Source of the DNA: Verrucomicrobiia bacterium
Lineage (GTDB): Bacteria > Acidobacteriota > Terriglobia > Acidiferrales > UBA7541
Assembly (NCBI GenBank): GCA_035500255.1
Contig: DATJXJ010000082.1
Span: forward strand, 19,188-83,187
DNA: 64,000 nt
Reading direction: 5' to 3'
In this document: positions 2,054 through 19,980 of the stretch, piece after piece
Numbering within the stretch: the stretch's first letter is position 1
Layout: the number at the start of each line of letters is the position of its first letter
The notes under the pieces: model-generated
Database searches by the model: none
Told to the model about the DNA's origin: nothing
Seen by the model: only the letters and a program-made list of their open reading frames with translations
Made by a program: the position numbers and the translations under genes

Positions 2054-2132
2054 CCGCCACTCTCCAACCGGAGGCTTCAGCAGAGCGGCTGACCGGGGAC
2101 GATTTCGCGGCCACCGCGGCGGCGTGATCGCG

Positions 2133-2864: not shown

Positions 2865-2870
2865 GCGGTA

Positions 2871-4490: not shown

Positions 4491-4875
4491 CAGCGTGCCT
4501 CCCGGAAAAATTGGCGATTAGGAGCGTCCTCGGTTGCTTGTTTGCAATCAGTTAGCGCGGGTTCTAATAACTGGAATTGGCGATTAAGAATTTCATAGCC
4601 CAGGAGAGGCTGTCCCGCAAACATCGGCACGGCACCCCACCGTCGCCGCATCGCTTTCCCCCTCGCGGCCGGCTGCTGAACTGCGCAGCAGGCTCGCGCG
4701 ACTGACACTTCATCCCACACCGGCGCCATTCTACTGCACGGCGAGAGAAGTGCAAGCGGGAGAGTATGTGGACTTCGTCGGGGGCCGATCTGCAGCGGCC
4801 GAATTTGCATCGTCATGATGCTTCGCCGCTCTTTTCCGGTATCATGAGTGCTTTCCATCGAAGGGATCAGCGACC

Positions 4876-5277
4876 ATGGCGAAGGCGAAGGAGCTGACTG
4901 TAACGATCGAGGACAAACCGGGCGCGCTTGGCAGGTGTTTTCTCGCCCTCGCGGAACGAGGAGTGAACATTCTGGCGTTCCAATCGTATGTCGAGGAAGG
5001 CGAAAGCTTGACGCGATTCCTGGTGGACGATCTGGCCACCGCCAAGGAAGTGCTCGGCAAGATGCGGATGATTTTCGAAATCACGGACGTCGCGACCGTG
5101 AAGGTGGCGCACAGGCCGGGCGAGCTGGGGCGCGCAGCCGCGCGGCTGGGCGAGAACCACATCAATATCGACTACTCCTACTGCGGCGTGGAGCCGGGGT
5201 CGATGCAGAGCATGCTCGTTTTCGGGGTCGATAACCTGACGAAGGCGGCCACGGTCCTCGACGAACTCGCGGCGTAG
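4876..5277 (+). CDS. ACT-domain protein
   Basis: 133 aa with two ACT-like repeats: 'LTVTIEDKPGALGRCFLALAERGVNILA' and 'VKVAHRPGELGRAAARLGENHINIDY'. Confidence 0.7.
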   Translation: MAKAKELTVTIEDKPGALGRCFLALAERGVNILAFQSYVEEGESLTRFLVDDLATAKEVLGKMRMIFEITDVATVKVAHRPGELGRAAARLGENHINIDYSYCGVEPGSMQSMLVFGVDNLTKAATVLDELAA

Positions 5278-5336
5278 AGAAAGCTCGATTCACTTCGCCT
5301 GGCGCGGGCGCAACCTCTCCGAGAACACTCGAAGCT

Positions 5337-6491
5337 CTAGTTTGCGCGGCCCCAGAGCCTTTTCGAGGCGATGCGGGCGCCCTCCGCGAGGGACTTGAAC
5401 TTCATCCACGAAAACGCGGGGAAAACAGGACCAAAGCCCGCGAACGTGCCGAAGCCGCAGTCGCTGCCCGCAATGACGCGCTCCTTGCCGACCACGTTCG
5501 CATAGCGGATCAGGCGCTGCGCCACGACTTCGGGATGCTCCACGTAGTTCGTGCTTGAAGCGATCACGCCGGGGATCAGGATCTTGTCGTCGGGCAGCTT
5601 GATCTTCGTCCAGGCTTCCCATTCGTGCTCGTGACGAGGGTTGGCGGCTTCGATGAGCAGCGCCATCGGCTTCACCTTGATGGCGATGGGGAAGATCTTC
5701 ATGCAATCCATGTCGTAGATGTGTGTGCCTTCGTAATTTCCCCAGCAGACGTGCAGCCGGACGCGATCGGCCGGAACATTGGCCAGCGCGTGATTCAGAG
5801 CTTCGACTTGCAGCTGGGCGTAGCGCAGAAATTCTTCGTCCGTCAGATTCTTGAAGCGCGAATGGCGCCCCATGGCAAGATCGGGGCAATCGAGCTGCAG
5901 CAGCAAGCCCGACTTCACGATCATTTCGTATTCTTCCCGCATGGCGTCGGCCAGCGCGGCGAGATACGTCTCGTGCGAGGGGTAGTATTCGTTCGGCTGG
6001 AATACGGCGATGGTGCCGGGCGAAACGGAATTCAGAAATCCTTCGACGACGTTCGCCTTTGACAGCGCCTCCTTCATGTGCGCGATATCCAGCTCGACCG
6101 GCTTGAGGTTCTTCACTTTGATCGGGCCCTTGCAGACGGGGCGTTTATAGGTTGCCGAATGGCCCGCTTTCACGAGGCGGTCGCGATATTCCGGAAAGTC
6201 CTCGAGGTCCTGAGGGGTCGGCCGCGCCGAATCGCCTTCAAAGCCCGTGAGGCGGTGGCGGATGTAGGTGGCGTAGCTGATCTTGCTTGTCTCTCCGTCG
6301 CTCACGACGTCGATGCCCGCTTCGGACTGACGCTTGACGAGATCGGCGGCGGCGCGGCGCATGGTTTCGTTGAATACACCTTCGTCGACAGGTTCGCCGC
6401 GGTCCTGCGCGAACAGCAGATCGACAACTTCCTGTGGGCGCGGCAGGCTGCCCACGTGCGTCGTAAGAAAACGGTCCTGGCTCGTCTTCAT
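5337..6491 (-). CDS. cobalamin-independent methionine synthase (MetE C-terminal domain)-like protein
   Basis: The N-terminal 'THVGSLPRP' and the overall 384-aa length match the MetE-like / methionine synthase II family. Confidence 0.7.
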   Translation of the reverse strand: MKTSQDRFLTTHVGSLPRPQEVVDLLFAQDRGEPVDEGVFNETMRRAAADLVKRQSEAGIDVVSDGETSKISYATYIRHRLTGFEGDSARPTPQDLEDFPEYRDRLVKAGHSATYKRPVCKGPIKVKNLKPVELDIAHMKEALSKANVVEGFLNSVSPGTIAVFQPNEYYPSHETYLAALADAMREEYEMIVKSGLLLQLDCPDLAMGRHSRFKNLTDEEFLRYAQLQVEALNHALANVPADRVRLHVCWGNYEGTHIYDMDCMKIFPIAIKVKPMALLIEAANPRHEHEWEAWTKIKLPDDKILIPGVIASSTNYVEHPEVVAQRLIRYANVVGKERVIAGSDCGFGTFAGFGPVFPAFSWMKFKSLAEGARIASKRLWGRAN

Positions 6492-6625
6492 CGGAGGTCC
6501 TTGGAGAAGTGCGTAACAGAGCGGGAGAGAAAATACTCCGCGCGGCGTGACGTTGCAACCACAAATCGGGCGGTCCCGGGACGCCGTTGCGAGGCGGGAA
6601 GTCGTGTGATGTATACTCCGGCACC

Positions 6626-7747
6626 ATGGAACCCATCCAAGCCGATTTCCACTTGAGCAAACTGGAACGAGTCGTCTCGGGCCCGGGGAAAATTGCCGCG
6701 CTGGGCGAGGAGCTGGAGCGGCGCGGATTGCAGCGCGCGATCATTGTGACGGGAAAGTCGCTTGGCGCCTCGCCGCTGCTCGAGAAGGTGAAGAGCGCGG
6801 CGGGATCGCGCGGCGTGGCCGTTTTCAAGGGCGCGCGGCAGCACGTCCCGCGGAGCAGCGTGGATGAACTGCAGGCGCTGATCGAGCGAGAGAGCGCCGA
6901 TGGCCTAGTCAGCTTCGGCGGGGGCAGTCCGATCGACACGTGCAAAGTGGCGAGCTACGCGTTTCTTAACAAGAGAGAAGTGACGCATATTGCCATCCCA
7001 ACCACGCTTTCGGCGGGCGAGTACACGCACGCGGGCGGCGTGACGGATGAGCAGACGCTGGTGAAGTCGGGAGTGTCCGATCCGCGGTTGCAAGCAAGGA
7101 CGGTGATCAACGATCCGGCGCTGACTTTGGAAACGCCGAATTGGCTATGGATCGCGACCGGCATGCGTGCGCTGGATCACGCGATCGAGACGATCTACAC
7201 GCCGAGGCACCATCCGCTGAGCGACGCGCTGGCGTCGAAGGCCATCGCGCTGCTGGTGGAGCACCTGCCGGCTTCCATCCACACGCAGGGGATGGAGCGG
7301 CTGGCTCATCGCGGGAGTTGCCAATTCGCGGCGTGGTTTTCGATCTACGGTTCGATGAACACGCGGTTCGGAATTTCGCACCTGCTGGGACATCAGATCG
7401 GGCCGCGGTGGAACGTGGCGCACGGGGTCACTTCGTGCATCACGCTGCCCCATGCGATGCGATTCATGGCGGGAATCGCGCCGGAGCGGTTTGGCCCGAT
7501 TGCGGAGGGATTTCGCGTTCCGTTCGATCCGGCGAAACCGAAGGCGGCGGCGCTCGCGTGCGCGGAGCGAACGGCGGACTTCGTCGCGCAGTTCGACGTG
7601 CCCCGCTCCTTGAAGGATGCGGGCGTGCCTCGCGCGGAGATCACCCAGATCGTTCCAACAGTGCTGCACGAGTTGGAGAAATCGGGAGTGGTCGACCGGC
7701 CGGTGACGGCTCAGGATGTAACGGCGTTGCTGGAAGCGGCGTACTAG
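6626..7747 (+). CDS. iron-containing alcohol dehydrogenase / maleylacetate reductase family
   Basis: 'IIVTGKSL' and 'SFGGGSPIDTCK' (GGGS nucleotide motif) plus a His-rich metal region 'HLLGHQIGPRWNVAHG'. Start taken at ATG 6626 (MEPIQ..). Confidence 0.75.
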   Translation: MEPIQADFHLSKLERVVSGPGKIAALGEELERRGLQRAIIVTGKSLGASPLLEKVKSAAGSRGVAVFKGARQHVPRSSVDELQALIERESADGLVSFGGGSPIDTCKVASYAFLNKREVTHIAIPTTLSAGEYTHAGGVTDEQTLVKSGVSDPRLQARTVINDPALTLETPNWLWIATGMRALDHAIETIYTPRHHPLSDALASKAIALLVEHLPASIHTQGMERLAHRGSCQFAAWFSIYGSMNTRFGISHLLGHQIGPRWNVAHGVTSCITLPHAMRFMAGIAPERFGPIAEGFRVPFDPAKPKAAALACAERTADFVAQFDVPRSLKDAGVPRAEITQIVPTVLHELEKSGVVDRPVTAQDVTALLEAAY

Positions 7748-7859
7748 CGCAGGCTCAGGGTGAAGAGAGATTCTTCGACTTCGCGTCTCGGCGCGGAGAT
7801 CGAAATGCGATCTCCGGAACAGCAAACCGCCGAGACGCTCCGCGCAGAATGACGAGCGC

Positions 7860-8942
7860 TTACTTGTTTGCCGGCTTGTCGCCGCCGATGAAGACCGCGC
7901 TGGTGCGCCGCGACGCGCCGGTCGGCGACGCCTCGGATGAGGCAACGGCCGGTGCAGCCTTCACGGGAGCCTTCATGCCGCCCGGGAAATTGCTCTCGGG
8001 AACCTTGATCGGCTCGAGCATCGCCTCGATTTCCGCTCGCCGCGCTTCGAACCACGGCGGAAGAAGCAAACTCTGACCGAGCTGGTCCGCGGGTTCATCG
8101 ACGGCAAATCCCTGCGGCACGGTGGCAGCGCACTCAACCAGAATTCCGCCCGGGCAGCGGCAATAGACCGAGTGGAAGTACATGCGGTCTTTGATTTCCG
8201 AAGCGTCGGTGTAGCCGAGCTCTTCGTAGATGCCTTTCTGCTCGGCAAGCTTTTCGTCGTTTTCCACTTCGAGCGCCATGTGGTGCGCGGTGCCAGCGCC
8301 GAAAATCCAGCTGCCCGACGGGCGCTCAGGTTCATGCAACAAAGTCACCGTCTTGTTGGGGCCGCCCTTGCCGATTTCGTAGCGGTGATAGGGGCCTTCC
8401 TGTCCGGTCTTCTTGAAGCCGAGCGCGTCGATGAAGAAACGCTCGGTCTCCGCGATCTCGCGGACCGAGAGGACCGGGCCGTGAAATCCGCGCGTGGCCA
8501 CGTCGCCGCTCACTTCTCCAACCGACCAGGGCTTGCGGGTATCAGAGCTGTCTTCGAAGACTTCCAGCTGGATGCCTGATGGATGATCGAAGCGGATGAA
8601 TTTTTGGCCGAACCGCTCCTCAATCCCGTTGTTCTTCACCTTGTGGCGGTTCAAATGTTCCAACCAGAATTTCAGAGAGCCTTTGGGGACCGAATACGCG
8701 GTCGACTGAATTTGCCCGGAACCTTGGCGCCCCCGCACACGTCCATAGGGAAAGGTCGTGTAGACGGAACCCGGCTCGGCATTCGCATTCGCGTAATACA
8801 GGTGATAGTGAGCATAGCGGCCATCGAAGAGAACCGTTTGCTTGATCATGCGCTGACCGAAAATCCTGGTCTGGAAGTCGATATCTTCCTGGGCGCCACC
8901 CACGCACACCGTCATGTGATGAAGACCCTTGACGAGAGACAT
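7860..8942 (-). CDS. VOC/glyoxalase-family ring-cleaving dioxygenase
   Basis: Two VOC modules, 'GLHHMTVCVG' and 'GFHGPVLSV', plus 'GTAHHMALEV'. The architecture is typical of MhqO/YfiE-like extradiol dioxygenases. Start taken at MSLVKGLHH. Confidence 0.75.
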   Translation of the reverse strand: MSLVKGLHHMTVCVGGAQEDIDFQTRIFGQRMIKQTVLFDGRYAHYHLYYANANAEPGSVYTTFPYGRVRGRQGSGQIQSTAYSVPKGSLKFWLEHLNRHKVKNNGIEERFGQKFIRFDHPSGIQLEVFEDSSDTRKPWSVGEVSGDVATRGFHGPVLSVREIAETERFFIDALGFKKTGQEGPYHRYEIGKGGPNKTVTLLHEPERPSGSWIFGAGTAHHMALEVENDEKLAEQKGIYEELGYTDASEIKDRMYFHSVYCRCPGGILVECAATVPQGFAVDEPADQLGQSLLLPPWFEARRAEIEAMLEPIKVPESNFPGGMKAPVKAAPAVASSEASPTGASRRTSAVFIGGDKPANK

Positions 8943-9137
8943 GAAGCTTACCTCCGTGCGCGGAGTGTACCACAAGTGGCTTGGGGCGGCGGGGCGGCCG
9001 GCCGAGCGCCGGCGACCGGCGTGCGCGAAAATTCAGCGTGGCCCGATGCGGAAAAACGGTGATCGCGGGCGCGACTTTTGTGATACAAGTTGGGGCCGAT
9101 CCGGCGGACACTGGGCGGGAGTTCGCGGGGGAGTGAC

Positions 9138-10034
9138 ATGGGTGGAATCGCTCGGGCGAGACTCCTGAGCATTGGGGCTTTGTTCGTTTTCCAAGCAGCG
9201 CTGATGGTGCGGCCGGCGGCAGCACAGCTGGATCCCTCCGGAATGTGGGCTCCGCGATTCGATGAAGATTGGGAAGAGAGGATCCCGGGTCCCGAGATTG
9301 GCGACTACCTCGGATTGCCGATCAACGCAGCGGCAAGGCTGAGGGGCGACAGTTGGGACGCGGCGCTGGTGGAGCTCCCCGAGAATCAGTGCCGGGCGCA
9401 CGGCTCGGATTACGGCTGGCGCGGCCCGTCGAACCTGAGCATCTGGAAAGAGGTCGACCGACCGACGCAGAAACTGATCGCGTATCACACGCATCTTTCC
9501 GCGTACGGCGCCGAGCAGACGATCTGGATGGACGGGCGGCCGCATCCGCCGGAATACGCCGCGCATACGTGGGCGGGATTCTCGACGGGCGAATGGGACG
9601 GCGACGCGCTGGTGATCACGACCACGCATCTGAAAGAGAACTGGATTCGGCGCAACGGAATTCCTCGCAGCGACCTGGCGACGGCGCGGGTGCACGTGCT
9701 GAAACACGGCAACTATCTGACGGTGGCTGTGATCGTGTATGACCCGGTGTATTTGACCGAGCCGTTCGTTCGCACGACGGATTTCGCTTTCGCGCCGCAG
9801 CAGCAGATGGCTCCGTGGCCGTGCGAAGTCGTGGATGAAGTGGACCGCCCGGCGGGGGTCGTGCCCAGCCATTTGATCGGCGCGAATCCGTTTCTGGACG
9901 AGTTTCCGGCGAACTACGGTATACCTCCCGAAGCAGCGAGAGGCGGCGCCGAGACGGCGTATCCGGAATACATGCTCAAGATGAAAGACATGAAACGATT
10001 GCCGCGTCCGGCAAAGAAGGTTACGAACCGATGA
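9138..10034 (+). CDS. secreted protein of unknown function (paralogue 1 of 2)
   Basis: An SD (GGGGGAG) precedes ATG 9138, which gives the signal peptide MGGIARARLLSIGALFVFQAALMVRPAAA|Q. It shares 'QC', 'W.G.S.G.W.G', 'IRRNGIP', 'DPVYL.EPF' and 'PCE' blocks with 11606..12424. Confidence 0.7.
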   Translation: MGGIARARLLSIGALFVFQAALMVRPAAAQLDPSGMWAPRFDEDWEERIPGPEIGDYLGLPINAAARLRGDSWDAALVELPENQCRAHGSDYGWRGPSNLSIWKEVDRPTQKLIAYHTHLSAYGAEQTIWMDGRPHPPEYAAHTWAGFSTGEWDGDALVITTTHLKENWIRRNGIPRSDLATARVHVLKHGNYLTVAVIVYDPVYLTEPFVRTTDFAFAPQQQMAPWPCEVVDEVDRPAGVVPSHLIGANPFLDEFPANYGIPPEAARGGAETAYPEYMLKMKDMKRLPRPAKKVTNR

Positions 10035-11083
10035 CGGCCATGGGCAGGAAGACTTCGCGCAGCGTGAGAATGAGATTCGCGGTATGGACGTTGAGCGCCG
10101 CTCTCGTCCCTTTCTGCACGGCAGTGAGTACGGCGCGCGCGCAGCAAAGTTCGAGTCAGGCTCCGAGCGCGCCGCCGGCGCGGGACTATTCGAAGGCGGA
10201 AGTTCACATACTGCCGGTGCAGGGCAACATCTACATGCTGGTCGGCGCGGGCGGGAACATAACTGCGCAGGTGGGGAATGACGGCGTGCTGCTGGTGGAC
10301 ACCGGCGTGACTCAGATGAGCGACAAAGTGCTGGCCGCAGTTCGCAGCCTTTCGGACAAGCCGATTCGCTACATCATCAACACGCACATGCATGCGGATC
10401 ACACGGGCGGAAACGAGCCGATTGCCAAGGCGGGCAGCACGATTGCCGGAGGCAACGTGGTGGGCGACATTGGCGCAAGCGCGGGCAATCAGGCCACGGT
10501 GCTGGCGTTCCAGAACGTGCTGGACCGGATGAGCGCGCCGACCGGACAGCAGGCGCCGACGCCGCAAGGCGCATGGCCCACCGAGACGTACACGACTCCC
10601 GAGCGAAAACTCTTCTTCGACGGCGAAGGGATCCAAGTGATCCACATTCCCGAGGCGCACACGGATGGGGACAGCATTGTCTTCTTTCGGCGGTCCGATG
10701 TGATCAGCACGGGCGATATTTTCGTGACCACGGGCTATCCTCTCGTGGACTTGCAGCACGGCGGCAACATTCAGGGCGTGATCGCGGGACTGAACAAGAT
10801 CGTCGAGCTGGCGATCCCGGCGGATGAGCAGGAAGGCGGCACGATGATCATTCCCGGCCATGGACGGTTGTGCGACGTGGCCGACGTCGTTTTTTACCAG
10901 GAAATGGTGACGATCATCCGCGACCGAATTCAGGACATGATCAAGAAGGGGATGACGCTCGAGCAGGTGAAGGCGGCGAAGCCCACGCTTGACTACGATC
11001 CGCGCTACGGATCGACGACCGGTTTCTGGACGACGGACAAGTTTGTAGAAGCCGTGTACAAGAGTCTGGCTCCGAAGCAGTAG
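10031..11083 (+). CDS. exported MBL-fold metallo-hydrolase
   Basis: The start overlaps the upstream stop (ATGA). It has a signal peptide ending ..STARA|QQ and an HxHxDH motif 'NTHMHADHTGGN'. Confidence 0.85.
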   Translation: MTAMGRKTSRSVRMRFAVWTLSAALVPFCTAVSTARAQQSSSQAPSAPPARDYSKAEVHILPVQGNIYMLVGAGGNITAQVGNDGVLLVDTGVTQMSDKVLAAVRSLSDKPIRYIINTHMHADHTGGNEPIAKAGSTIAGGNVVGDIGASAGNQATVLAFQNVLDRMSAPTGQQAPTPQGAWPTETYTTPERKLFFDGEGIQVIHIPEAHTDGDSIVFFRRSDVISTGDIFVTTGYPLVDLQHGGNIQGVIAGLNKIVELAIPADEQEGGTMIIPGHGRLCDVADVVFYQEMVTIIRDRIQDMIKKGMTLEQVKAAKPTLDYDPRYGSTTGFWTTDKFVEAVYKSLAPKQ

Positions 11084-11099
11084 AGGACGCCGGGGCGCA

Positions 11100-11129
11100 C
11101 GGACAAGCTTGCTTTCGCCGCGCTATAAT
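11100..11129 (+). promoter_or_regulatory. sigma-70-type promoter candidate
   Basis: Perfect -10 TATAAT at 11124-11129 and -35-like CGGACA at 11100-11105, with an 18-nt spacer. It lies about 28 nt upstream of ATG 11157, and GGGAGG (SD) sits between them. Confidence 0.45.
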
Positions 11130-11156
11130 AGTTGCATCGGTTTGGGAGGTGGTTCC

Positions 11157-11543
11157 ATGAAGCGCGCATTTCTGGCGGTGGCGATCGTTGCCGCCCTGGC
11201 AGCCGGCGGTCGGGCATACGCACATCATTCCTTTGCAGCGACCTACTTCGTCGACCAGGAAGTCACGGTGGAAGGGACGCTCACGCAGTTTCTGTACCGC
11301 AATCCGCATTCGTTCATAAAAGTCGAGGGGAAAGACGACAAGGGCGAGACCGTGACGTGGTCCGTGGAGTGGGGCGGCGGGGCACAATTGACGCAGGAGC
11401 ACGTGACCCGGGACACGCTGAGGCCCGGCGATCACGTGATTGTTTCGGGAAATCCCGGCCGCGATCCTTCCGAGCACAGGATTCGCTTGCACAAGATCGT
11501 CCGTCCCGCGGACGGCTGGAAGTGGGAAGGCGTGATCATGTAG
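11157..11543 (+). CDS. small periplasmic protein (DUF6152-like), predicted mature N-terminus His-His
   Basis: SD GGGAGG, then signal peptide MKRAFLAVAIVAALAAGGRAYA|HHSFAATYF with an AxA cleavage site. The mature protein of about 105 aa looks beta-rich. Confidence 0.7.
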   Translation: MKRAFLAVAIVAALAAGGRAYAHHSFAATYFVDQEVTVEGTLTQFLYRNPHSFIKVEGKDDKGETVTWSVEWGGGAQLTQEHVTRDTLRPGDHVIVSGNPGRDPSEHRIRLHKIVRPADGWKWEGVIM

Positions 11544-11605
11544 CGCGCTCTCCCGGCGAATCGGGAGAGGATGTGGGCAGTGGGTGGGGACCCCGGGGGC
11601 GAGAC

Positions 11606-12424
11606 ATGGGTTTGATTGCGTTCGTGAGACGTAGTGAGCTGCCGCTGGCTATCATGGCCTTGGCGTTGCTGGCGGCGCCCAGCCACGTTGGCGCGCAAAT
11701 CGGTTTCGCTCCTTCCGGCGGCCCCGCGAACGCCCGTGCAGGCGCTCCCGTCGACATGACCGGATACTGGGTTTCCCTCGTCACCGAAGACTGGCGCTAT
11801 CGAATGCTAACTCCCGACAAGGGAGACTATCCCGGCATTTTCCTCACGCCGGAGGGCATGCGCGTCGCGAACTCCTGGGATCCGGCTAAGGATGAGGCGG
11901 CGGGAGAGCAGTGCAAGTCGTATGGCGCCGGCGCGATCATGCGCGTTCCAACGCGGCTGCACATCACTTGGGACAACGACACGACATTGCGCGTTGAAAC
12001 GGACGCGGGAAAGCAGGTCCGGCTGTTCCATTTCGGAGGAAGCGATGTGCCGAAGGGCGAGGCGCCTTCCTGGCAGGGTTATTCTTTGGCGAGCTGGGAA
12101 GGGCTGAGGCCGCGGGGATTCGGATTGCCAACGGTGGCGTCCGGCGGAGCGAGGGTGGCCCACCACGATGAGGGATATCTGAAGGTGACCACGAAAGACT
12201 TGCGGCCCGGGTACATCCGAAAGAACGGCGTGCCGTACGGCGCGAACGCGGTGGTAGAAGAGTATTTCGACAGCTTCACGGAACCCAACGGGGATACATG
12301 GCTCGTGGTGACGTCGGTGGTCACCGACCCCCAGTATCTGGCGCAACCCTACCTGACGAGTTCGCAGTTCAAGAAGCTTCCCGACGCCTCCGGGTGGAAT
12401 CCCATGCCGTGCGAGGCGAAGTAG
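11606..12424 (+). CDS. secreted protein of unknown function (paralogue 2 of 2)
   Basis: ATG 11606 gives the signal peptide MGLIAFVRRSELPLAIMALALLAAPSHVGA|Q. The blocks 'EQCKSYG', 'YIRKNGVP', 'DPQYLAQPY' and 'PCEA' align with 9138..10034. The upstream part of the 11132 ORF overlaps the previous gene and is discounted. Confidence 0.7.
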   Translation: MGLIAFVRRSELPLAIMALALLAAPSHVGAQIGFAPSGGPANARAGAPVDMTGYWVSLVTEDWRYRMLTPDKGDYPGIFLTPEGMRVANSWDPAKDEAAGEQCKSYGAGAIMRVPTRLHITWDNDTTLRVETDAGKQVRLFHFGGSDVPKGEAPSWQGYSLASWEGLRPRGFGLPTVASGGARVAHHDEGYLKVTTKDLRPGYIRKNGVPYGANAVVEEYFDSFTEPNGDTWLVVTSVVTDPQYLAQPYLTSSQFKKLPDASGWNPMPCEAK

Positions 12425-12498
12425 ATCCACGGCCGCTGCCTGGCGCAGGGGCGCGATCGACGGCCAGTCCGCAGAGCGGTCTTTCCGGGGTGTGACGG

Positions 12499-13005
12499 AT
12501 GTGGCTTTCTAACTTCTTGCAGTGGCTTGCCGACACGCAGTTCAGCACGACGATGCGCGAATCGGTGTGGGCCGAGCCGATCGTCGAAACGATCCACGTA
12601 CTGACGCTCACGCTGTTTCTGGGTTTCGCCGTGCTGCTCGACTTGAGGCTGCTGGGCGTCTGCCTGACGCGCAAGCGGGTATCCGAAGTGCTCGCGCAAT
12701 TCAATCCGTGGCTCTTCGGCGGATTTGCCGTGATGATCGTTACGGGCGTGCTGCTCTTCTGCGGCGATCCGGTCTCCTTCTACCACACCAAGCCGCCGTT
12801 TTTCATCATCAAGATGGTGATGCTGGTGCTCGCCGGCCTGAACGTGATCATTTTCAATCTGACGCTGGGGAGAAAAGTGGCCGAGTGGGATGCGGACAGC
12901 AAGACGCCGCGGGGTGCAAAGATGGCGGGCGTCGTATCGATTGTGCTGTGGGTACTGATTGTGGCAGCGGGACGAGCGATCGCATACGCCCTTCCGCCCC
13001 CCTGA
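12499..13005 (+). CDS. 4-TM membrane protein, tandem paralogue A (DUF6644-like / CopD-like?)
   Basis: Four hydrophobic helices. Motifs shared by all four copies: 'P.VE..H' in TM1, 'LDLRLLG', 'PW', 'TG..LF..DP' and a C-terminal 'GRAIA'. Confidence 0.7.
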   Translation: MWLSNFLQWLADTQFSTTMRESVWAEPIVETIHVLTLTLFLGFAVLLDLRLLGVCLTRKRVSEVLAQFNPWLFGGFAVMIVTGVLLFCGDPVSFYHTKPPFFIIKMVMLVLAGLNVIIFNLTLGRKVAEWDADSKTPRGAKMAGVVSIVLWVLIVAAGRAIAYALPPP

Positions 13006-13020
13006 GGAGGCTCGTTGCAC

Positions 13021-13545
13021 ATGTGGTTTCGTCATCTGGTGCTGACGTTCTGCCAGTGGTGCAACAATTCGTTCTTCGGACACGGCATCCGGAACTCCGT
13101 GTGGTTGTTTCCGTTTGTCGAAATATTCCATCTGCTCGGCCTCGGCATTTTGGGAGGAACGCTGCTGGTGCTGAATCTGCGCCTGCTCGGCCTCGGATTT
13201 CGCGGGGAGAGAACCTCAGAGCTTGAGAGAGACTTCCGCCCGTGGATACTGGGAAGCCTCGGCGTGATGCTGATTTCGGGCTTCCTGCTCTTTTCGACCG
13301 AAGCCGTGAAGATGTACGGCAACTGGGCGTTTCGCTGGAAGATGCTGTTCCTGCTGTGCGCGATCGTCTATACGTTCACAATCTACCGAAGGGTCGTGAT
13401 CTCGGATGAGACGCGCGTGACGGTGACGTGGCGCGTGGTAGCAGCTCTGCTTTCAATCATGCTGTGGGCCGGAGTCGGGCTCGGTGGCCGGGCGATCGGC
13501 TATGTGACCACGTCCGTGAGTTCGGTAAGCACTTCTGGACAGTAA
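13021..13545 (+). CDS. 4-TM membrane protein, tandem paralogue B
   Basis: SD GAGGAGG at 13004-13010, 10 nt before ATG 13021. Motifs 'FPFVEIFH', 'LNLRLLG' and 'GRAIGY'. Confidence 0.7.
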   Translation: MWFRHLVLTFCQWCNNSFFGHGIRNSVWLFPFVEIFHLLGLGILGGTLLVLNLRLLGLGFRGERTSELERDFRPWILGSLGVMLISGFLLFSTEAVKMYGNWAFRWKMLFLLCAIVYTFTIYRRVVISDETRVTVTWRVVAALLSIMLWAGVGLGGRAIGYVTTSVSSVSTSGQ

Positions 13546-13578
13546 GGAATAAGCGCTCGAAGTCGAGAGCAACCATCG

Positions 13579-14055
13579 ATGCTTCTCACTTTCATCTTGC
13601 AGGGAACCCCTGAAGCGATTCCTCTGAATCCGATCGCGCGATGGGAGTGGGTATTCCCGATCGTCGAGTCGCTCCACATCTGCGGTTTCGTGCTGCTGGT
13701 GGGGACCGCCGTGATTCTCGATCTTCGTCTGCTCGGGATTGTCTTGCGAGGGCAACCGGTTTCGCGGCTTGCCAGAGAGCTGTCGCCATGGATCTGGGCA
13801 GGCCTGGCGATTCAGCTGGTCACGGGGCCGTATCTTTTCTCCGGCGATCCGCGCGAATACGTTCAGATCACAGCGTTCCGCGTAAAGATGCTGCTTTTCG
13901 CGCTGGCTTTGGTCTACCAGTTCACCGTGATCCGAAAAGCAGCCGCGTCCGCCGAGCCGGCCGGCGACTTGGGCTGGCGCAAGCCGGCGGCGATCGTGTC
14001 GCTGGGGCTTTGGCTTGGCGTGATGGTGGCGGGGATGTGGATCGGGAATCTGTAA
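13579..14055 (+). CDS. 4-TM membrane protein, tandem paralogue C
   Basis: Motifs 'FPIVESLH', 'LDLRLLG', 'PW' and 'TGPYLFSGDP'. The C-terminal motif is degenerate (GMWIGNL). Confidence 0.7.
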   Translation: MLLTFILQGTPEAIPLNPIARWEWVFPIVESLHICGFVLLVGTAVILDLRLLGIVLRGQPVSRLARELSPWIWAGLAIQLVTGPYLFSGDPREYVQITAFRVKMLLFALALVYQFTVIRKAAASAEPAGDLGWRKPAAIVSLGLWLGVMVAGMWIGNL

Positions 14056-14085
14056 CGCGGCCGTGGCACGAGGGAAACTTCTGGA

Positions 14086-14574
14086 ATGTCGCTCCTGAGA
14101 TTCTGCGAATGGTTGAGCCAGACGGACTTCAGCATCTGGCTTCGCGAAGCTCCCTATCCGTTTCCAGTGCTGCTGATGGTCCATTTGCTGACGATCGGAA
14201 TTGTGGGGGGCATGGTCGCGATGGGGAATCTGCGAGTGCTGGGATGGGCGATGCGCGATGTGCCCGTGTCGCAGGTAGTCGGCCAGTTTCGGCCGTGGAA
14301 ATGGGCCGCGTTCGTCGTGTTGCTGCTGACGGGCCTGCTGCTTTGCGCGTCCGATCCGATGGAATATTACGGCAACAAAATGTTCTGGATTTCGAATGGG
14401 ATTCTGGCGCTTGCGGGTGTAAATGCGCTCGTCTTTCGATACGGAATCTACCGAAGCGTGAACGAATGGGATACCGCGACTGAAACGCCCGGGCGCGCAA
14501 GACGCTGGGCGGGCGTCTCATTGTTGCTCTGGATCGCCTTGATCTTTGCGGGAAGAGCGATCGCCTTCTTCTGA
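14086..14574 (+). CDS. 4-TM membrane protein, tandem paralogue D
   Basis: Motifs 'FPVLLMVH', 'GNLRVLG', 'RPW', 'TGLLLCASDP' and 'GRAIAFF'. The N-terminus 'FCEWLSQTDFS' parallels 'FLQWLADTQFS' in copy A. Confidence 0.7.
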   Translation: MSLLRFCEWLSQTDFSIWLREAPYPFPVLLMVHLLTIGIVGGMVAMGNLRVLGWAMRDVPVSQVVGQFRPWKWAAFVVLLLTGLLLCASDPMEYYGNKMFWISNGILALAGVNALVFRYGIYRSVNEWDTATETPGRARRWAGVSLLLWIALIFAGRAIAFF

Positions 14575-14603
14575 CGCGCGGCGGTCCGCCGCAATCCTGC
14601 GCA

Positions 14604-17282
14604 CTACAATCCGATGTAATACTGAAAGGGCGCCCAGTAAAAGGGCCGCTGATACACGCCGTTCGAATGAAGCAGAGCAAGCTTCGCGTTTCGGAGCGCG
14701 ACCGCGGGATCTTTCCCTTTGCTCATCTGGCCGTACAAATCACCCATCAAACGCGCGGTGGAAGCGTCATTGACGTCCCAAAGCGCCGCAATCACACTGC
14801 GCGCACCAGCCCTTAGAAACGCCCAGGACAATCCGACCAGGCCTTCTCCCGAATAGTTTCGCGATCCCACGCCGTGGCATGCGGAGATGGTGACCAGTTC
14901 CGCTTTCAGAGGATGCCGCACCACGTCGCGCCCGTAGAGCTTGAAGGAGTCACCCTGCCGACTCAGGATCACGGCAGATTCGAGCGGCCGGGCGCGGCTC
15001 GAGGTGCCGTGCGCGACAAAATGAATGAACGCAAACTGGCCCGGGTTGCTATCGACATATGCCTGTGCCGTCGCGCTGCTGCCGGATAGAACGCGCGTGT
15101 CCGGGGATGGAAAGTACTTTTCGATGCTCGCCATTTCGGCCGCAGCTTGCGGCAGCTGGGGAAAATCGCTGCCGGGCGAAACGGGATCGCCGATCAGCAG
15201 CAGCTTGCCGTGCATCGTCGCCGTGGCGCGACGCGCGGCGGCGACGAGGATCAGGGAATCCGAATAGGTGATGGTAGCGTCCTCGATCCAGTAGTGCGGC
15301 ACGGGCTCGGGCGCGAGCAGCGTCTCGAAATTAAGGCCGCACAGACTGCCGTCCGGCACGATCACGACGCGCGATCCCTTGGGGATCAGATCCTGCGCCG
15401 GAGCGACGAGCATTTTGTAGAGGGCGGTTCCGCTGGAATTCGCGGTTTGCAGGACGTCGCGCGGGCCGAGCAGCGCTCCGGCGTACGATTGCACGGCTGC
15501 ATCGATTTGTTCGGCCGGGGCCAGGAAGAAAATCCTAAGCCGGCCCGAGGGCAGGATCGCCCAGAGATAGGAATGACGCGAACCGAGCCAGTAGCAGAGA
15601 ATCACCGCGTCCTGACGCCGCGCGGCGCCTTTCCAGTCTTCAGGCGTGAGGCGCGCGAGCCCCTTTTCAGGATCGAGCCCGAGCCCTTCGACGAGCGTGC
15701 GTGCACGCGTCAGAGCGGCGAGGCGCAGGGCGTCCTCTGCGCGGTTCTGGGAGACGAGGAATTCCAAATAGTCGTCGTACAGCTCGGCGGCATTGGCGAG
15801 AAACGGAATACGAAGCTCCTCCGACTGGACTGAACGCCTTGCCGCCTCAAGCGTGTCGACGGCTCCGCGAAACTCGCGCTCCGCGGCCGCCGGATTGCCC
15901 GCGTCTGCGTAGACGGAGGCGAGACGAGCCTGTGCCTCCCAGCGAAGAGATGGGGTTGCGGCTGGATCGGCGATCACGCCGTTCAAGATCTGCACGGCAC
16001 GCTGACGATTGTGCCGGCCGCCCTCAATGCGGGCCGCGGTGATTGTCGATGCAAGCTCGCCATTGCGATCTTGCGCGGCTCGCGACAGGCGCAGCGCTTC
16101 CCGGTTTTCTGAATCGGCGGCGTCGAGCCGGTCGCGCGCCAGGTCGATGTCCGAGAGTGAGCGAAGCGATTGCGCGATTCCGACATTTTGGTCCTGCTGC
16201 CGCGCCAGGTTCAGGGCGCTGCGAATCTCGGATTCCGCGTCGCCGAAGTCGCGCCGGTAGGAGTCGACCGAGCCCACATTGATGCGCCAGAGGAGCTGAT
16301 CGCCGAGATTGCCTTCTTTCGCCGCCGATTCCTCTGCCTGTTGGAAGAGCGCGCGGGAGTTTTCGTAGTCGCCCAGCTCGAAGTAGCTCCACGCCATGTT
16401 GCCGAGCGTCTTGGTGGCGGACGTGCGCGCGCCAATCGACTGCGCGAGACTCAGCGCGGCCGTGTTCCACTGGATCGACTCGTCGTAGTGCTCCTGCTGC
16501 GCCGCGGTGAGCCCGAGACTGCCGAGCGCGGCCGCTTCGAGAAACGGATCCTTTTGCTCGCGCGCGATTCGAAGGGAATCGCGATAGGCGAGCGCGGCAT
16601 GCGCAGAATCATCGCGGAGGAAACAGAGAGTCCCTTTGCGCAGGGCGACTTCGCCGAGCAGCTCGGGATGAAACCTTTCAGCGAGCGCTTGCGCCTCGCC
16701 CAAACGCGCGTCGGCATCGGCAAACTGAGAGAGGAAACCGTCCGCGGCGGCCTGTGACATCTTGCGCCACACGGCGAGATCGGAGGTGCCGAGCGTCACC
16801 GGCAGTTGCGGCTGGAGCAGATCCAGCGCCTCTTGATTGCGCCGCTGCCGAACCAGAATCTCGGCTTTCAGCGCGCGAAATCTCCAGTTCCATTCCGCCG
16901 CGGGGTCGGGAAACGCGCGGAGCTGCAGATCCGCCTGCTGAAGAGCGTCCTGCCATTCTCCGCGCTTCAGCTTGAGCCAGGTGTCCCTATATATCTGATC
17001 CGGGGGGACGGATGGCGGGCGCTTGCATGCGGCGCATGCAAGCGCGATTGCGGCGAGGAGAAATCCTATGGCCAGGGACTGCCATTGACGGTGGCCTGGG
17101 CGGCGACCACGGTGCCGCTCGAGGGAGAGCCCATCTCGAGGCGAAGCATCGTGAGCGTGCGGCTGCCATGCCGCGCGAGCATTTCGGCGACGTAGACTCG
17201 GCCAAACTCGGGCACGACGAAGCAATGTCCGCGACGCGTTACGCCCGGGCACGTCGTCTTCATGTCTTTCACGAGCGAGCAA
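14604..17282 (-). CDS. TPR-repeat CHAT-domain (caspase-like) protease with N-terminal hydrophobic anchor; start codon uncertain
   Basis: C-terminal CHAT signature: 'FIHFVAHG' (His), 'VTISACHG' (Cys), 'WDVND' and 'PFYWAPF'. The central ~500 aa consists of TPR-like repeats. The hydrophobic segment 'LAIGFLLAAIALACAAC' follows an Arg-rich stretch. I see no ATG/GTG/TTG in frame between roughly 17228 and the hydrophobic segment, so the annotated start (TTG 17282) overlaps the upstream gene. Confidence 0.8.
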   Translation of the reverse strand: MLARERHEDDVPGRNASRTLLRRARVWPSLRRRNARAAWQPHAHDASPRDGLSLERHRGRRPGHRQWQSLAIGFLLAAIALACAACKRPPSVPPDQIYRDTWLKLKRGEWQDALQQADLQLRAFPDPAAEWNWRFRALKAEILVRQRRNQEALDLLQPQLPVTLGTSDLAVWRKMSQAAADGFLSQFADADARLGEAQALAERFHPELLGEVALRKGTLCFLRDDSAHAALAYRDSLRIAREQKDPFLEAAALGSLGLTAAQQEHYDESIQWNTAALSLAQSIGARTSATKTLGNMAWSYFELGDYENSRALFQQAEESAAKEGNLGDQLLWRINVGSVDSYRRDFGDAESEIRSALNLARQQDQNVGIAQSLRSLSDIDLARDRLDAADSENREALRLSRAAQDRNGELASTITAARIEGGRHNRQRAVQILNGVIADPAATPSLRWEAQARLASVYADAGNPAAAEREFRGAVDTLEAARRSVQSEELRIPFLANAAELYDDYLEFLVSQNRAEDALRLAALTRARTLVEGLGLDPEKGLARLTPEDWKGAARRQDAVILCYWLGSRHSYLWAILPSGRLRIFFLAPAEQIDAAVQSYAGALLGPRDVLQTANSSGTALYKMLVAPAQDLIPKGSRVVIVPDGSLCGLNFETLLAPEPVPHYWIEDATITYSDSLILVAAARRATATMHGKLLLIGDPVSPGSDFPQLPQAAAEMASIEKYFPSPDTRVLSGSSATAQAYVDSNPGQFAFIHFVAHGTSSRARPLESAVILSRQGDSFKLYGRDVVRHPLKAELVTISACHGVGSRNYSGEGLVGLSWAFLRAGARSVIAALWDVNDASTARLMGDLYGQMSKGKDPAVALRNAKLALLHSNGVYQRPFYWAPFQYYIGL

Positions 17283-17842
17283 AGCAAGACACCTCGCGGG
17301 TCCGGCAGCTTGACGGGTTCGCCTGACTGAAAGGGATCCTCGGCCATTTTCCGAAATTGGGGATTGTTTGCAAGTTCATTCGACAGGGCGTCGAACGTCT
17401 TCAGGCGAAGGAAGAAGTCGTGGTCGAATTCGACGTCGACACGGCAGCCGGCGATCTGCAGATTCTCAAACTTGCTGCCAAGCAGAACGACGTTTGGCTC
17501 GCGGCTTTCCCAGGGATGCTGGGTGGCCAGACGAGCGACCACACGGTCGGCCGTCACAACGTCGAGAATGTTCAGGCCTTCGACGGTCGAGGTGACCAGC
17601 GTGGTGTACGCGCCGTCGACGGGATTGTGGCTGCCCGACACGGCGGAATAGGCTGCCTTGAACGAGACGAACTCCTGAAAGCTGAACTTTTCCACGCGCG
17701 CGTGGCCATGCCCTCCGGTCGTGGGAAGTGAGGTGCCCGCCTGCACTTCGATCAGGTGTTCGACAGGCCGATGAAACTGTCCGCTGAGACCGTGCCCGTG
17801 GGCATTGTAGTGATACGTCTGCTTGGAGGCCGAAGTGCTCAT
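17066..17842 (-). CDS. hypothetical cytoplasmic protein, His/Gly-rich N-terminus
   Basis: 258 aa with SD AAGGAAGGA upstream of ATG 17842 and no signal peptide. The N-terminus carries 'HYNAHGHG' and 'GGHGHAR'. I recognise no family. Confidence 0.6.
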   Translation of the reverse strand: MSTSASKQTYHYNAHGHGLSGQFHRPVEHLIEVQAGTSLPTTGGHGHARVEKFSFQEFVSFKAAYSAVSGSHNPVDGAYTTLVTSTVEGLNILDVVTADRVVARLATQHPWESREPNVVLLGSKFENLQIAGCRVDVEFDHDFFLRLKTFDALSNELANNPQFRKMAEDPFQSGEPVKLPDPRGVLLCSLVKDMKTTCPGVTRRGHCFVVPEFGRVYVAEMLARHGSRTLTMLRLEMGSPSSGTVVAAQATVNGSPWP

Positions 17843-17873
17843 CGAAGATCATCCTTCCTTTTGATGATTGTGA

Positions 17874-18587
17874 TTATGGATTCGAGGAACCGCTCGAGTG
17901 CGCATAGGCGATCGAGAAGTTGTAGCGGGCGAGTTCGGCGCCTTGCGCGTCGCCGGACCCGGATGCTCCCCGAACAACGAGTGCGTACGGGCCTGGAGTC
18001 AGACGGGAAGCCGGAACCAGAATCTGCACCGTGTTTCTGGCTTCGTCAGCGGAGATGGAGACCGCGAATTGCGCGGCTCCGGCTTCGCTTTCAACCCGCA
18101 GAGTATACACGGGAAACGACGGCTGCGGCGGCACGTCTGCGTAAAGAGAGAAGGGCTGATCGGGTTGAACAATGAATGCGGCCGCGCCTTCGCCGCGCGC
18201 GTTGCTGTCGATCAATGAGAAGGAAGTCAGGGCGCGCGGAGCGGCGGTCCTCGATGCCGAGGATTCCAGGCGAGGGATTACGACCCCGGATTGATATCCG
18301 ATAATCGCCAGAAGAACGGCAAACGCGGGCACGGCAAACGCGGGACGCAGAATCCAGGCGAGCCAACCACGCGACGGCCCGGCAGTCTTTGCAGCGACCA
18401 ATTCGGAGGCTTGCGAGCGAAATACGTCCCGCGCACTTTCCACGAACATAACTCCGGCGCGAAGGTCCGCCGCGCATTCCGCGCAGGACATGAAGTGCTC
18501 TTCGAACTCCGCACGCAAGTCCCCGCTGATTTCTCCAAGCAGGTACTGCTCGGCGGCTTTCAAGCGGATGGCGTCAGAATGTTCCAT
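17874..18587 (-). CDS. zf-HC2 anti-sigma factor, single-pass membrane protein
   Basis: N-terminal 'HFMSCAECAADL' (H-x3-C-x2-C), a TM segment 'AFAVPAFAVLLAIIGY', and an extracytoplasmic domain of about 125 aa. Confidence 0.8.
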   Translation of the reverse strand: MEHSDAIRLKAAEQYLLGEISGDLRAEFEEHFMSCAECAADLRAGVMFVESARDVFRSQASELVAAKTAGPSRGWLAWILRPAFAVPAFAVLLAIIGYQSGVVIPRLESSASRTAAPRALTSFSLIDSNARGEGAAAFIVQPDQPFSLYADVPPQPSFPVYTLRVESEAGAAQFAVSISADEARNTVQILVPASRLTPGPYALVVRGASGSGDAQGAELARYNFSIAYAHSSGSSNP

Positions 18588-18648
18588 ATTCCGTCTTCCC
18601 TATAGTGCGGCTCGACTTCCAATCGTTTCGCTCCGCCTTTGCGTGATG

Positions 18649-19278
18649 TCAACAACCCTCGGGTATCGGGCGGCGGTCTGCGGCTCCCGCGCTTCTTTCG
18701 TAAAGGGCCTTGAAGCTGTGCTTGGCGCGGTGCAGAAGCACCCTCAGATAGTCGCGGTCGACCTTGAACTCGCGGCAGACCTGGTCCTTTTCCTTCTCTT
18801 CCAAGAAGAGCGCATGCAGCAGGCGTTTGTCTCTATCTGGAAGCTGGTCAAGCACTTGCCGCACCTGTTGGCACGTCTGCTTCGTAACCAGGAAGCCGTC
18901 AAGATCAATCGCTGTGTCGGAGGGCTCGACAGCCTCGGTTTCCAACTGGCCGGTTCGCGCGGACGAGCGGTAGAACTCCATTAGGATGTTGTTACACACT
19001 GAGTTAACAAAGGCGCCCAAACGCTCGGGAGCACGAATCCCGCCTTCGCTCCGAAGCGCGGCCAGAACCCGAACGAAGGTCTCCTGCTTGACGTCCTCGA
19101 TGGCCTGCACGGAATGAAGGCGCGACCTCAATTTGATGTGCAGCAGATCGCTGAAGTAGGAAACGAAATGACTCTCCGTGGCTGGATCACGGCTTTGGAG
19201 GCGGCGGAAGTAGGTCTCATCGAACTCGAAGAATTCCACGCTGCCCTCGCGAGAAGGGCAGAAGTATAGCTTCCCCAT
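18649..19278 (-). CDS. ECF-type RNA polymerase sigma-70 family factor
   Basis: Region 2 ('DVKQETFVRVL') and region 4 ('LPDRDKRLLHALFLEEKEKDQVCREFKVDRDYLRVLLHRAKHSFK'). Start set at ATG 19278; the longer ORF extension to 19845 looks non-coding. Confidence 0.8.
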   Translation of the reverse strand: MGKLYFCPSREGSVEFFEFDETYFRRLQSRDPATESHFVSYFSDLLHIKLRSRLHSVQAIEDVKQETFVRVLAALRSEGGIRAPERLGAFVNSVCNNILMEFYRSSARTGQLETEAVEPSDTAIDLDGFLVTKQTCQQVRQVLDQLPDRDKRLLHALFLEEKEKDQVCREFKVDRDYLRVLLHRAKHSFKALYERSAGAADRRPIPEGC

Positions 19279-19539
19279 TCTGTAGGTGCAATGAACGAGC
19301 CGACTTATGGGTGCTCGGTGCAGGTGTCGCCCCGGTAAGCTTGCGGCAACCCGAAGAAAGCTTTCCCAGAATGAAACGAAGCTGATGCTTCGTTCACTAC
19401 TAGGCGAGAAACCGAACCCAACGCGACAGGCCATCCGCCTACCCCAACCGTCACCCAAAGACAACGGACGGCCTGTCGCCCCCCAGTTCTTTTCGATCGC
19501 GCTGCGAACGGGTCGGTCGAGTGGCAGGAGGGCCAAGTG

Positions 19540-19980
19540 ATGGAAATGGAGTCGGCGGCAAAAGAGCCGGGAGATTGCGACACTCCTTTCGAGGTGTTGT
19601 TGCCGGCCGGGAGCTTTGGTCCAGACGACAAGCTCGATCGGCCAAGCTGGGCGGTTCGAAGCATTGGGTTCATCGCCAAGCCTGACAAAACACGCGAACT
19701 GACAGCTTGCCTCGAAGGGCCGGTGAGCACTTTGCTGAGAGAAACCCCCGGGTTCGCGGGTTTGATGGTAATGCACTCGCAGCACGAGGAACGCAATTTG
19801 CTCGTCCTTACATTCTGGGAGACGGAAAAGCAGGCGGCAAACCACTGGGAAGAGTTCAGCAGCGTGCGGAGAATCGTGAGCCCCCTAGTGGACGTGTGCG
19901 CGAAGGTGCAGACGTTTCACGCCGCGGCGCTGCTCGTCACACGGGGCGCGAAGGGCAAGCGAGCAGCGAAAGCCTCCTGA
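19540..19980 (+). CDS. ABM/Dabb-like ferredoxin-fold protein (putative)
   Basis: SD AGGAGG sits about 9 nt upstream of ATG 19540. 'GFAGLMVMHSQHEERNLLVLTFWETEKQA' resembles antibiotic-biosynthesis-monooxygenase-like domains. Confidence 0.45.
   Translation: MEMESAAKEPGDCDTPFEVLLPAGSFGPDDKLDRPSWAVRSIGFIAKPDKTRELTACLEGPVSTLLRETPGFAGLMVMHSQHEERNLLVLTFWETEKQAANHWEEFSSVRRIVSPLVDVCAKVQTFHAAALLVTRGAKGKRAAKAS

Follow-up and report, generated by a model that had tools for sequence, protein, structure and literature searches.

What is the function of four related membrane proteins whose genes stand back to back at a single place in a bacterial genome? The question is raised by a 64,000-nucleotide stretch of DNA from a Verrucomicrobiia bacterium (GenBank assembly GCA_035500255.1, contig DATJXJ010000082.1, positions 19,188 to 83,187), referred to here as the window, in which four genes, copies A to D, each encode a protein of about 160 residues with four predicted transmembrane (TM) helices. 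They belong to DUF6644, a family that is already catalogued but whose function is unknown. We find that the array is organised not as four equal copies but as two pairs of unlike genes, A with B and C with D, and that the unit which recurs in other genomes consists of two DUF6644 genes and one gene for a small secreted protein, DUF6152. Because the pairs are obligate, the secreted partner is fixed and tipped with His-His, and the fusion repertoire resembles that of CopC and CopD, a concrete hypothesis can be put forward for two domains of unknown function. We hypothesise, tentatively and at slightly less than an even chance, that two heterodimeric pairs of half-size CopD-like proteins together with DUF6152 form a split CopCD-like relay, which would carry a metal, probably copper, from the periplasm to the membrane.

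An initial annotation, made from the window alone, described four back-to-back paralogues of about 160 residues. This description is correct as regards the reading frames, the + strand, the protein lengths (158–174 residues) and the short intergenic gaps, which are 15, 33 and 30 nucleotides for A/B, B/C and C/D. Copy B is taken to start at the ATG at 13021, following a GAGGAGG sequence; its open reading frame (ORF) itself opens at a TTG at 13015. A scan of the gene cluster for promoters and terminators gave matches no better than chance. When the four proteins are aligned using MAFFT, the identity to A is 34–38% and 21 columns are invariant, including P27, H33, G42, R50, L52, G53, P70, W71, G83, W151 and G158. 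Copy A retains the complete polar set, namely E30, H33, D48, R50, K105, W151 and R159. Copy C lacks R20 and R159, while copy D lacks E30 (replaced by Leu) and K105 (replaced by Ser, at a position otherwise 98% conserved). The motifs quoted in the annotation are present, with two qualifications: the terminal GRAI is missing in C, which has GMWIGN at this position, and TG..LF..DP is degenerate in B. The N-terminal motif said to be common to A and D is real, and agrees with the phylogeny discussed below.

All four copies score between 37 and 56 bits against Pfam DUF6644 (PF20349), for which the gathering threshold is 27, and they match profile positions of approximately 25–154 out of 155. Since all of them exceed the threshold, their resemblance is not a matter of chance. 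The proteins had been compared initially with the CopD-like superfamily, and DUF6644 had been named as one family to be considered; at the level of Pfam both suggestions are upheld. Copy D matches CopD (PF05425) with 26.3 bits (E 1e-5), below the threshold of 32.1 bits but the best CopD score of the four, and copy A does so with 17.3 bits (E 0.006, also sub-threshold), while the same scan gave no CopD match for copies B and C. Sub-threshold matches to DUF2214 were obtained for A (E 3e-5) and C (E 0.003), and CopD and DUF2214 are the only additional families detected. No NCBIfam model matched any of the copies, and when profiles of DUF6644, DUF6152 and the bar family (secreted proteins of the same cluster, described below) were used to search PDB sequences, nothing was found. 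A full-text search for literature on DUF6644, DUF6152, PF20349 or PF19649 likewise found none.

The family is large. A HMMER scan of 1.84 billion representatives with a profile of the four paralogues yielded 7,211 clusters (at 50% identity) with E ≤ 1e-3, and 3,678 with E ≤ 1e-10; with more than 7,000 clusters, DUF6644 is common in soil Acidobacteriota, Steroidobacteraceae and Gemmatimonadota. Conservation across the family was computed on the 148 best representatives, which share no more than 50% mutual identity and contain 151 domains. The histidine in TM1 is kept in 150 of these 151 domains. Other positions are also strongly conserved (R50 97%, K105 98%, W151 98%, S147 97%, R159 93%, D48 86%, E30 78%). 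A second sample, of loci, was collected by a scan in which each species was represented by a single genome and the query was an alignment of orthologues of copy A; it consists of 80 related loci (here numbered L; family representatives are numbered P). These are mostly from Acidobacteriota (Candidatus Acidiferrales/Acidoferrum), the remainder including Steroidobacteraceae, other Gammaproteobacteria, Bryobacteraceae and Gemmatimonadota. All 235 orthologues of A, B, C or D from these 80 genomes have the TM1 histidine, as well as G42, G83 and W151, with R50 at 97%. The initial annotation had called this histidine invariant and had asked whether the His and Arg positions would fail to be conserved among homologues; family-wide, the histidine, R50 and R159 are all retained at the levels given above.

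In comparisons with four orthologous arrays, the ratio of non-synonymous to synonymous substitution rates (dN/dS) is 0.08–0.30 per copy, with dS saturated (≥1). All four copies are under purifying selection. The proposal that the array is an old amplification maintained by selection is thus borne out by dN/dS values well below 1, by the occurrence of A-B-C-D arrays in 37 of the 80 loci, and by the depth of the C and D clades. In a neighbour-joining tree, A is sister to D and B is sister to C, and the C and D clades branch more deeply than the entire A and B clades, Gemmatimonadota sequences included. The array therefore consists of A-B, followed by a B-like gene and then an A-like gene. There are two classes, here called A/D and B/C, and as judged from the tree they are older than the split between phyla.

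The distribution of the genes follows the same pairwise pattern. The orthologous A-B-C-D array is found in 37 loci and A-B alone in the remaining 43. Copy A is present in all 80, and B lies directly downstream of it in 79, the exception (L047) being a contig that ends just past A. C is always found together with D. Natural fusions provide the strongest evidence of pairing. About 30 were identified, and each of them joins one A/D-class domain to one B/C-class domain; none combines two domains of the same class. The order is A-to-B in P0001 and some 28 relatives (72–88% identical, approximately 308 residues), in P0152 and in P0361, and B/C-to-A/D in P0360 and P0377. A further candidate, P0198, was discarded as it contains an out-of-frame-like segment. 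AlphaFold2 was run on P0001 with an alignment of 65 sequences and gave a prediction of good quality (mean predicted local distance difference test score (pLDDT) 89, predicted TM-score (pTM) 0.81), in which there are eight TM helices, four per domain, and two N-terminal amphipathic helices.

It could be argued that the copies are nevertheless independent, forming four homo-oligomers of distinct specificity whose tandem layout results merely from serial duplication. Each copy does have its own pattern of conserved residues, and a single-gene CopD-like protein with four TM helices does exist in L087. Against this, fusions always mix the classes, B directly follows A in every locus that extends past A and C never occurs apart from D, and the two classes predate the separation of the phyla. 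We therefore consider independent paralogues to be very unlikely. The initial annotation had offered a hetero-oligomeric complex or four specificities as alternatives. The first is supported indirectly, by the mixed-class fusions and the eight-helix model of P0001, with the pair as the unit; the second finds no support. We conclude that the array is made up of two hetero-pairs, A with B and C with D, and the proteins of the window would be expected to associate physically in this way. The losses noted above are complementary, R20 and R159 in C and E30 and K105 in D, and for this reason C with D probably serves as a second unit that has become specialised or has partly degenerated. A variation on the theme is seen in L048, where two bar/MBL/DUF6152 cassettes (MBL being a metallo-beta-lactamase-fold hydrolase) lie in opposite orientations at 600–12100, and where the DUF6644 array again has four genes, the third and fourth being just distantly C-like and A/D-like.

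The second constant feature is DUF6152, which adjoins the DUF6644 genes in 76 of the 80 loci. It is of interest that the smallest loci (L064, L070–L074 and L078–L080, the last three on the opposite strand) keep DUF6152 and the A-B pair. Six further loci were fetched for other members of the family, and DUF6152 adjoins in three of them (L082, L085 and L088), with none in L081, L086 and L087. The gene order in L088 is DUF6152, DUF6644, DUF6644-cytochrome c', and in P0428 the two families are fused as DUF6152-DUF6644, with ARA and then HH following the signal peptide. On the short contigs of unrelated members, adjoining DUF6644 pairs are seen in L086 and L085, and the one sampled member in L087 looked single. 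The recurring unit is thus DUF6152 plus two DUF6644 genes. The alternative raised initially, that homologues are usually single and unlinked to these neighbours, is not what is observed: apart from L087, they are paired where the locus shows neighbours, and DUF6152 is adjacent in most.

DUF6152 proteins have a signal peptide, ending in A-x-A or similar, followed by an invariant His-His which is predicted to be the mature N-terminus. This motif (AHH) and a second one, N-P-H, are invariant in 17 aligned sequences that are 25–91% identical to the copy in the window, and in the full set of 85 collected sequences each is conserved to at least 90%; a W and an E are conserved as well. A mature N-terminal His, as predicted, and a second conserved His correspond, at the level of sequence alone, to the pattern of histidine-brace-type periplasmic copper proteins such as CopC and YcnI. 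The predicted structure is of moderate confidence (pLDDT 72) and is an OB-fold, and its structural matches are generic OB-folds (SSB, the N-domain of LysRS, YgiW) with E values of 8e-3 or worse. Stand-alone DUF6152 paralogues were also seen in several loci from Acidiferrales (L016, L023, L035, L037 and L076), where they lie on the opposite strand, downstream of the array by a few kb. Of these loci, L016 alone was scanned (11969–16263), and there the paralogue adjoins a gene for a large beta-barrel protein of the outer membrane that contains a CarboxypepD_reg domain.

The orientation of DUF6644 in the membrane can be deduced from its fusions. In three representatives the C-terminus is extended by a cytochrome c'-like domain with a CxxCH motif: P0377, which has two DUF6644 domains, P0489 and P0497. 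Together with the fusion of a secreted domain to the N-terminus and the positive-inside pattern of charges, this requires a topology in which both termini are outside. The invariant histidine is then about eight residues, or some two helical turns, into TM1 from the periplasmic side, and level with E30, with K105 at the start of TM3 and with R159 at the end of TM4.

These features invite comparison with CopD. The CopD protein YebZ of E. coli is a copper importer that needs His135 and His154, both near the periplasmic face, and the H154A mutant shows no uptake; the CopC homologue YobA boosts copper uptake by YebZ (PMC11923076, Commun Biol 2025). The Pfam CopD domain spans residues 185–284 of YebZ and 63–155 of copy D, which would place H33 at about YebZ 154–155. 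In both proteins there is an H-x8-G pattern (H33/G42 in DUF6644, H154/G163 in YebZ). For a 64-sequence DUF6644 profile set against a five-sequence CopD profile, hhalign gave a single alignment (E 0.28), which pairs H33 with H154, G42 with G163 and G83 with G205, and a weak alignment from hmmsearch against YebZ (0–4 bits) puts K105 opposite an invariant CopD Lys, numbered K230 in the alignment used. A comparison of DUF6644 with YebZ alone by hhalign was not significant. Since the direct profile comparisons are non-significant, it is collinearity that carries the suggested positional equivalence of H33 and YebZ H154.

The likeness to CopD, YebZ and PcoD can be summarised as follows. Both are built from a four-helix-bundle block, with sub-threshold Pfam similarity over TM2–TM4 (E 1e-5) and eight TM helices in the working unit, a number which DUF6644 reaches in natural two-domain fusions and would reach in the proposed heterodimer. 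In both, the first helix of the bundle has a conserved His (within H-x8-G) close to its periplasmic end, and the third a conserved Lys. DUF6152 is secreted, as are CopC and YobA, and a histidine is its predicted mature N-terminus. The fusion repertoire is the same, in that the soluble partner may be joined to the membrane protein, and the latter to cytochrome c: among PF05425 members, about 35% are 'truncated' proteins with four TM helices, CopC-CopD fusions make up about 9%, and cytochrome c domains occur in about 4% (PMC11923076). The differences are equally clear. CopD is a single chain with eight TM helices, whereas DUF6644 is encoded by two genes of two ancient classes, each with four. 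DUF6152 is an OB-fold, whereas CopC is a beta-sandwich. There are no copper-homeostasis genes beside the DUF6644 array. DUF6644 lies outside PF05425, as it is below the threshold of that family, has four TM helices per chain and lacks both an equivalent of YebZ His135 and a CopC. The truncated CopD proteins and DUF2214 are likewise uncharacterised single bundles of four helices in which one His is conserved; DUF6644 differs in being a separate Pfam family that forms obligate hetero-pairs linked to DUF6152. A further parallel is found in B. subtilis, where YcnI (DUF1775), which binds Cu(II) through an N-terminal His, feeds the CopD-type domain of YcnJ, a CopC-CopD fusion. Fused and unfused versions occur in both systems. 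The soluble proteins of the two systems do not share a fold. Taken as an analogy, DUF6644 plausibly works in the way that CopD does.

In the mechanism that we propose, one A/D-class and one B/C-class subunit would come together as a pseudo-symmetric unit with eight TM helices, equivalent to full-length CopD. DUF6152 would bind a metal ion through its His-His and the His of NPH, as the N-terminal histidine does in CopC and YcnI. It would capture the metal, most likely copper, in the periplasm and pass it to the histidine site in the membrane, and the DUF6644 pair would then move it into the inner membrane or through to the other side. An electron might be provided, in some lineages, by a c-type cytochrome that is fused to the unit or encoded next to it. 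The structural and organisational parts of this model are well supported; the binding of a metal, its identity and the direction of transport are inferred.

A number of observations weigh against the proposal. There is no CopC (PF04234) in the cluster, and no CopC, CopA, CueO, Sco or PCuAC was seen in any locus examined. Each DUF6644 subunit has one invariant His and no Met or Cys motif, and beside the His site there is an invariant Lys, which is unusual for a cation path. Truncated CopD proteins are reported to keep the first His, at the position of H135 (PMC11923076), whereas the His of DUF6644 maps to the second, H154. The profile comparisons between DUF6644 and CopD are not significant (hhalign E 0.28 with a probability below 1%, hmmsearch 0–4 bits), and the model of DUF6152 shows a disordered N-terminus, the part that would hold the metal. 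Among solved folds, subunits of cytochrome bd come closest, though weakly. Finally, the neighbours in the window are periplasmic hydrolases, namely a carboxylesterase with a twin-arginine (TAT) signal and the MBL protein, and elsewhere they are pyrroloquinoline quinone (PQQ) or GMC dehydrogenases and c-type cytochromes, to which a redox role fits at least equally well.

Such a redox role can be stated explicitly. The DUF6644 hetero-pair might be a small membrane b-type cytochrome or an electron-transfer anchor, in which each subunit contributes its TM1 histidine as a ligand to a haem close to the periplasmic face, in the manner of cytochrome b559, while R20 and R159 hold the propionates. Electrons would pass between periplasmic redox proteins (cytochrome c', dihaem cytochrome c, PQQ/GMC dehydrogenases) and the quinone pool. 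In a Foldseek search of the PDB with the P0001 model, the best hits were CydA/CydB of cytochrome bd (7d5i_A, E 2.7e-3, TM-score 0.5–0.6) and then ActF of alternative complex III. In CydA, a TM1 His located towards the periplasm is a haem ligand, and CydA and CydB have the same N-out topology. Like the DUF6644 fusion, CydA and CydB consist of two consecutive four-helix bundles; unlike them, DUF6644 has no detectable sequence similarity, Q-loop, ninth helix or other haem ligands. Moreover, no Foldseek match reached E ≤ 1e-3, and the stacking of two four-helix bundles is a widespread arrangement.

Gene context and residue losses bear on the same question. A dihaem cytochrome c precedes the minimal module in L070, PQQ dehydrogenases adjoin it in L079 (7296–8918) and L082 (3876–5102), a GMC oxidoreductase and a Gluconate_2-dh3 small subunit adjoin a DUF6644 fusion in L081 (3168–6927), and three representatives carry the cytochrome c'-like domain with CxxCH. 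The examples in L079, L081 and L082 may reflect a recurrent association with periplasmic dehydrogenases. The simultaneous loss of R20 and R159 from copy C would also fit a shared role in haem binding. On the other side, the cluster in the window has no redox enzyme of its own, and a redox function leaves unexplained why a secreted His-His protein recurs as partner. Cytochrome c fusions occur in genuine CopD proteins too (PMC11923076). As regards sequence families, no cytochrome b family and no HemJ (PF03653) was found among the Pfam matches of A–D at E ≤ 0.1. HemJ-type haem-b protoporphyrinogen oxidases are themselves CopD-like. We regard a haem-b or redox subunit as unlikely, but as the main rival explanation.

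A broader alternative keeps the architecture and dispenses with copper import. The DUF6644 pairs and DUF6152, in some lineages together with cytochrome c', may form a previously unrecognised relay from periplasm to membrane, being either a b559-like heterodimeric cytochrome with one His per subunit, which takes electrons from periplasmic enzymes to the quinone pool, or a system for the reductive uptake of another metal, with C and D as a regulatory or asymmetric partner. This appears rather unlikely.

The hypothesis of a split CopD-like metal relay can be tested at little cost. If it is correct, it would extend the recently established copper-import mechanism of CopD to an architecture of two half-transporters, and it would have a bearing on the 'truncated CopD' proteins with four TM helices, which are so far unexplained. 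If the pair binds haem instead, it would be a new small membrane cytochrome.

The genes of the locus are listed in Table 1. Copies A–D close a cluster of eight genes on the + strand, in the order bar1, MBL, DUF6152, bar2, A, B, C, D, and the majority of the 80 loci, which come from several phyla, show synteny for the cassette from bar1 to B.

Table 1. Location of the DUF6644 genes and of neighbouring genes in the window.
Feature	Position	Strand	Remarks
DUF6644 copy A, 168 residues, A/D class	12499-13005	+	PF20349 40.4 bits; TM1 His H33, codon 12595-12597
DUF6644 copy B, 174 residues, B/C class	13021-13545	+	PF20349 56.4 bits; TM1 His H37, codon 13129-13131
DUF6644 copy C, 158 residues, B/C class	13579-14055	+	PF20349 37.1 bits; TM1 His codon 13675-13677
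DUF6644 copy D, 162 residues, A/D class	14086-14574	+	PF20349 47.1 bits; TM1 His codon 14182-14184
DUF6152, 128 residues	11157-11543	+	PF19649 79 bits; signal peptide ends A-Y-A; His-His codons 11223-11228
bar1, secreted, first gene of cluster	9138-10034	+	ORF opens at TTG 9090; likely start Met 9138
MBL, secreted metallo-beta-lactamase-fold hydrolase	10031-11083	+	Intact HxHxDH
bar2, secreted, paralogue of bar1	11606-12424	+	Present in 72/80 loci
Carboxylesterase (COesterase family)	2871-4490	-	Twin-arginine (TAT) signal MDRRSFIG...
Upstream genes: MetE-like (Meth_synt_2), Fe-ADH family, two-domain VOC dioxygenase	5337-8975		Nearby in 23/80, 43/80 and 49/80 loci
Downstream block: CHAT-TPR (892 residues), unknown 258-residue protein, zf-HC2 anti-sigma-like, 398-residue ORF with no Pfam match	14604-19845	-	

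The bar1 and bar2 proteins are related to each other (26% identity, E 6e-21) and have no relative in Pfam, NCBIfam or the PDB. Their family has an invariant pair of Cys; Asp, Glu and Trp are conserved at many positions, and His at none. In L079, a locus from Gemmatimonadaceae, DUF6152 is followed by distant homologues (4749–5825 and 5840–6925, both on the - strand; hhalign probability 94–96%). A 249-residue protein in L070 was also considered as a bar homologue and was rejected on comparison. The nearest NCBIfam models for the MBL protein are the SoxH-related 'quinoprotein relay system zinc metallohydrolases', which it matches with 94 bits against a cut-off of 280. In 7–8 of 69 MBL orthologues, the first two His of the HxHxDH motif are replaced (S-x-D-x-D-H). 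Orthologues of the carboxylesterase, scoring 790–950 bits, adjoin the cassette in Steroidobacteraceae, other Gammaproteobacteria and Acidobacteriota, and their presence even in Steroidobacteraceae suggests that the island has been transferred between phyla. The upstream dioxygenase and Fe-ADH may be a hydroquinone-type ring-cleavage enzyme and a maleylacetate reductase.

This setting raises another explanation, that the pairs and DUF6152 are accessories of a catabolic island. They would import or sense an organic product of the periplasmic hydrolases (TAT carboxylesterase, MBL, bar1 and bar2), which would then be degraded in the cytoplasm by the VOC dioxygenase and the Fe-ADH-type reductase encoded upstream. 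The extensive synteny of the cassette, the adjacent carboxylesterase even in Steroidobacteraceae, and the frequent proximity of the dioxygenase (49 of the 80 loci) and the Fe-ADH (43) are all consistent with this. However, DUF6152 and two DUF6644 genes occur with none of the island enzymes in L064, L070–L074, L085 and L088, and since the module can exist apart from the hydrolases, a role in the island is not the general function of the pairs. In addition, an invariant N-terminal His-His and a single buried His suggest that what is handled is not an organic substrate but a metal or a cofactor, and a bundle of four plus four TM helices with no obvious polar network lining a cavity is atypical of solute carriers. 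A part played by the DUF6644 pair in the hydrolase island is possible; as an account of what the proteins do, we consider it improbable.

The block downstream of copy D is shared with the closest locus, L003, only, and is for that reason placed outside the cassette. Cassettes approximately 72–78% identical were also found in three loci, L005, L017 and L040, that are labelled as Candidatus Cybelea, Baltobacteraceae and Dormiibacterota, and these represent either transfer or mis-binned contigs.

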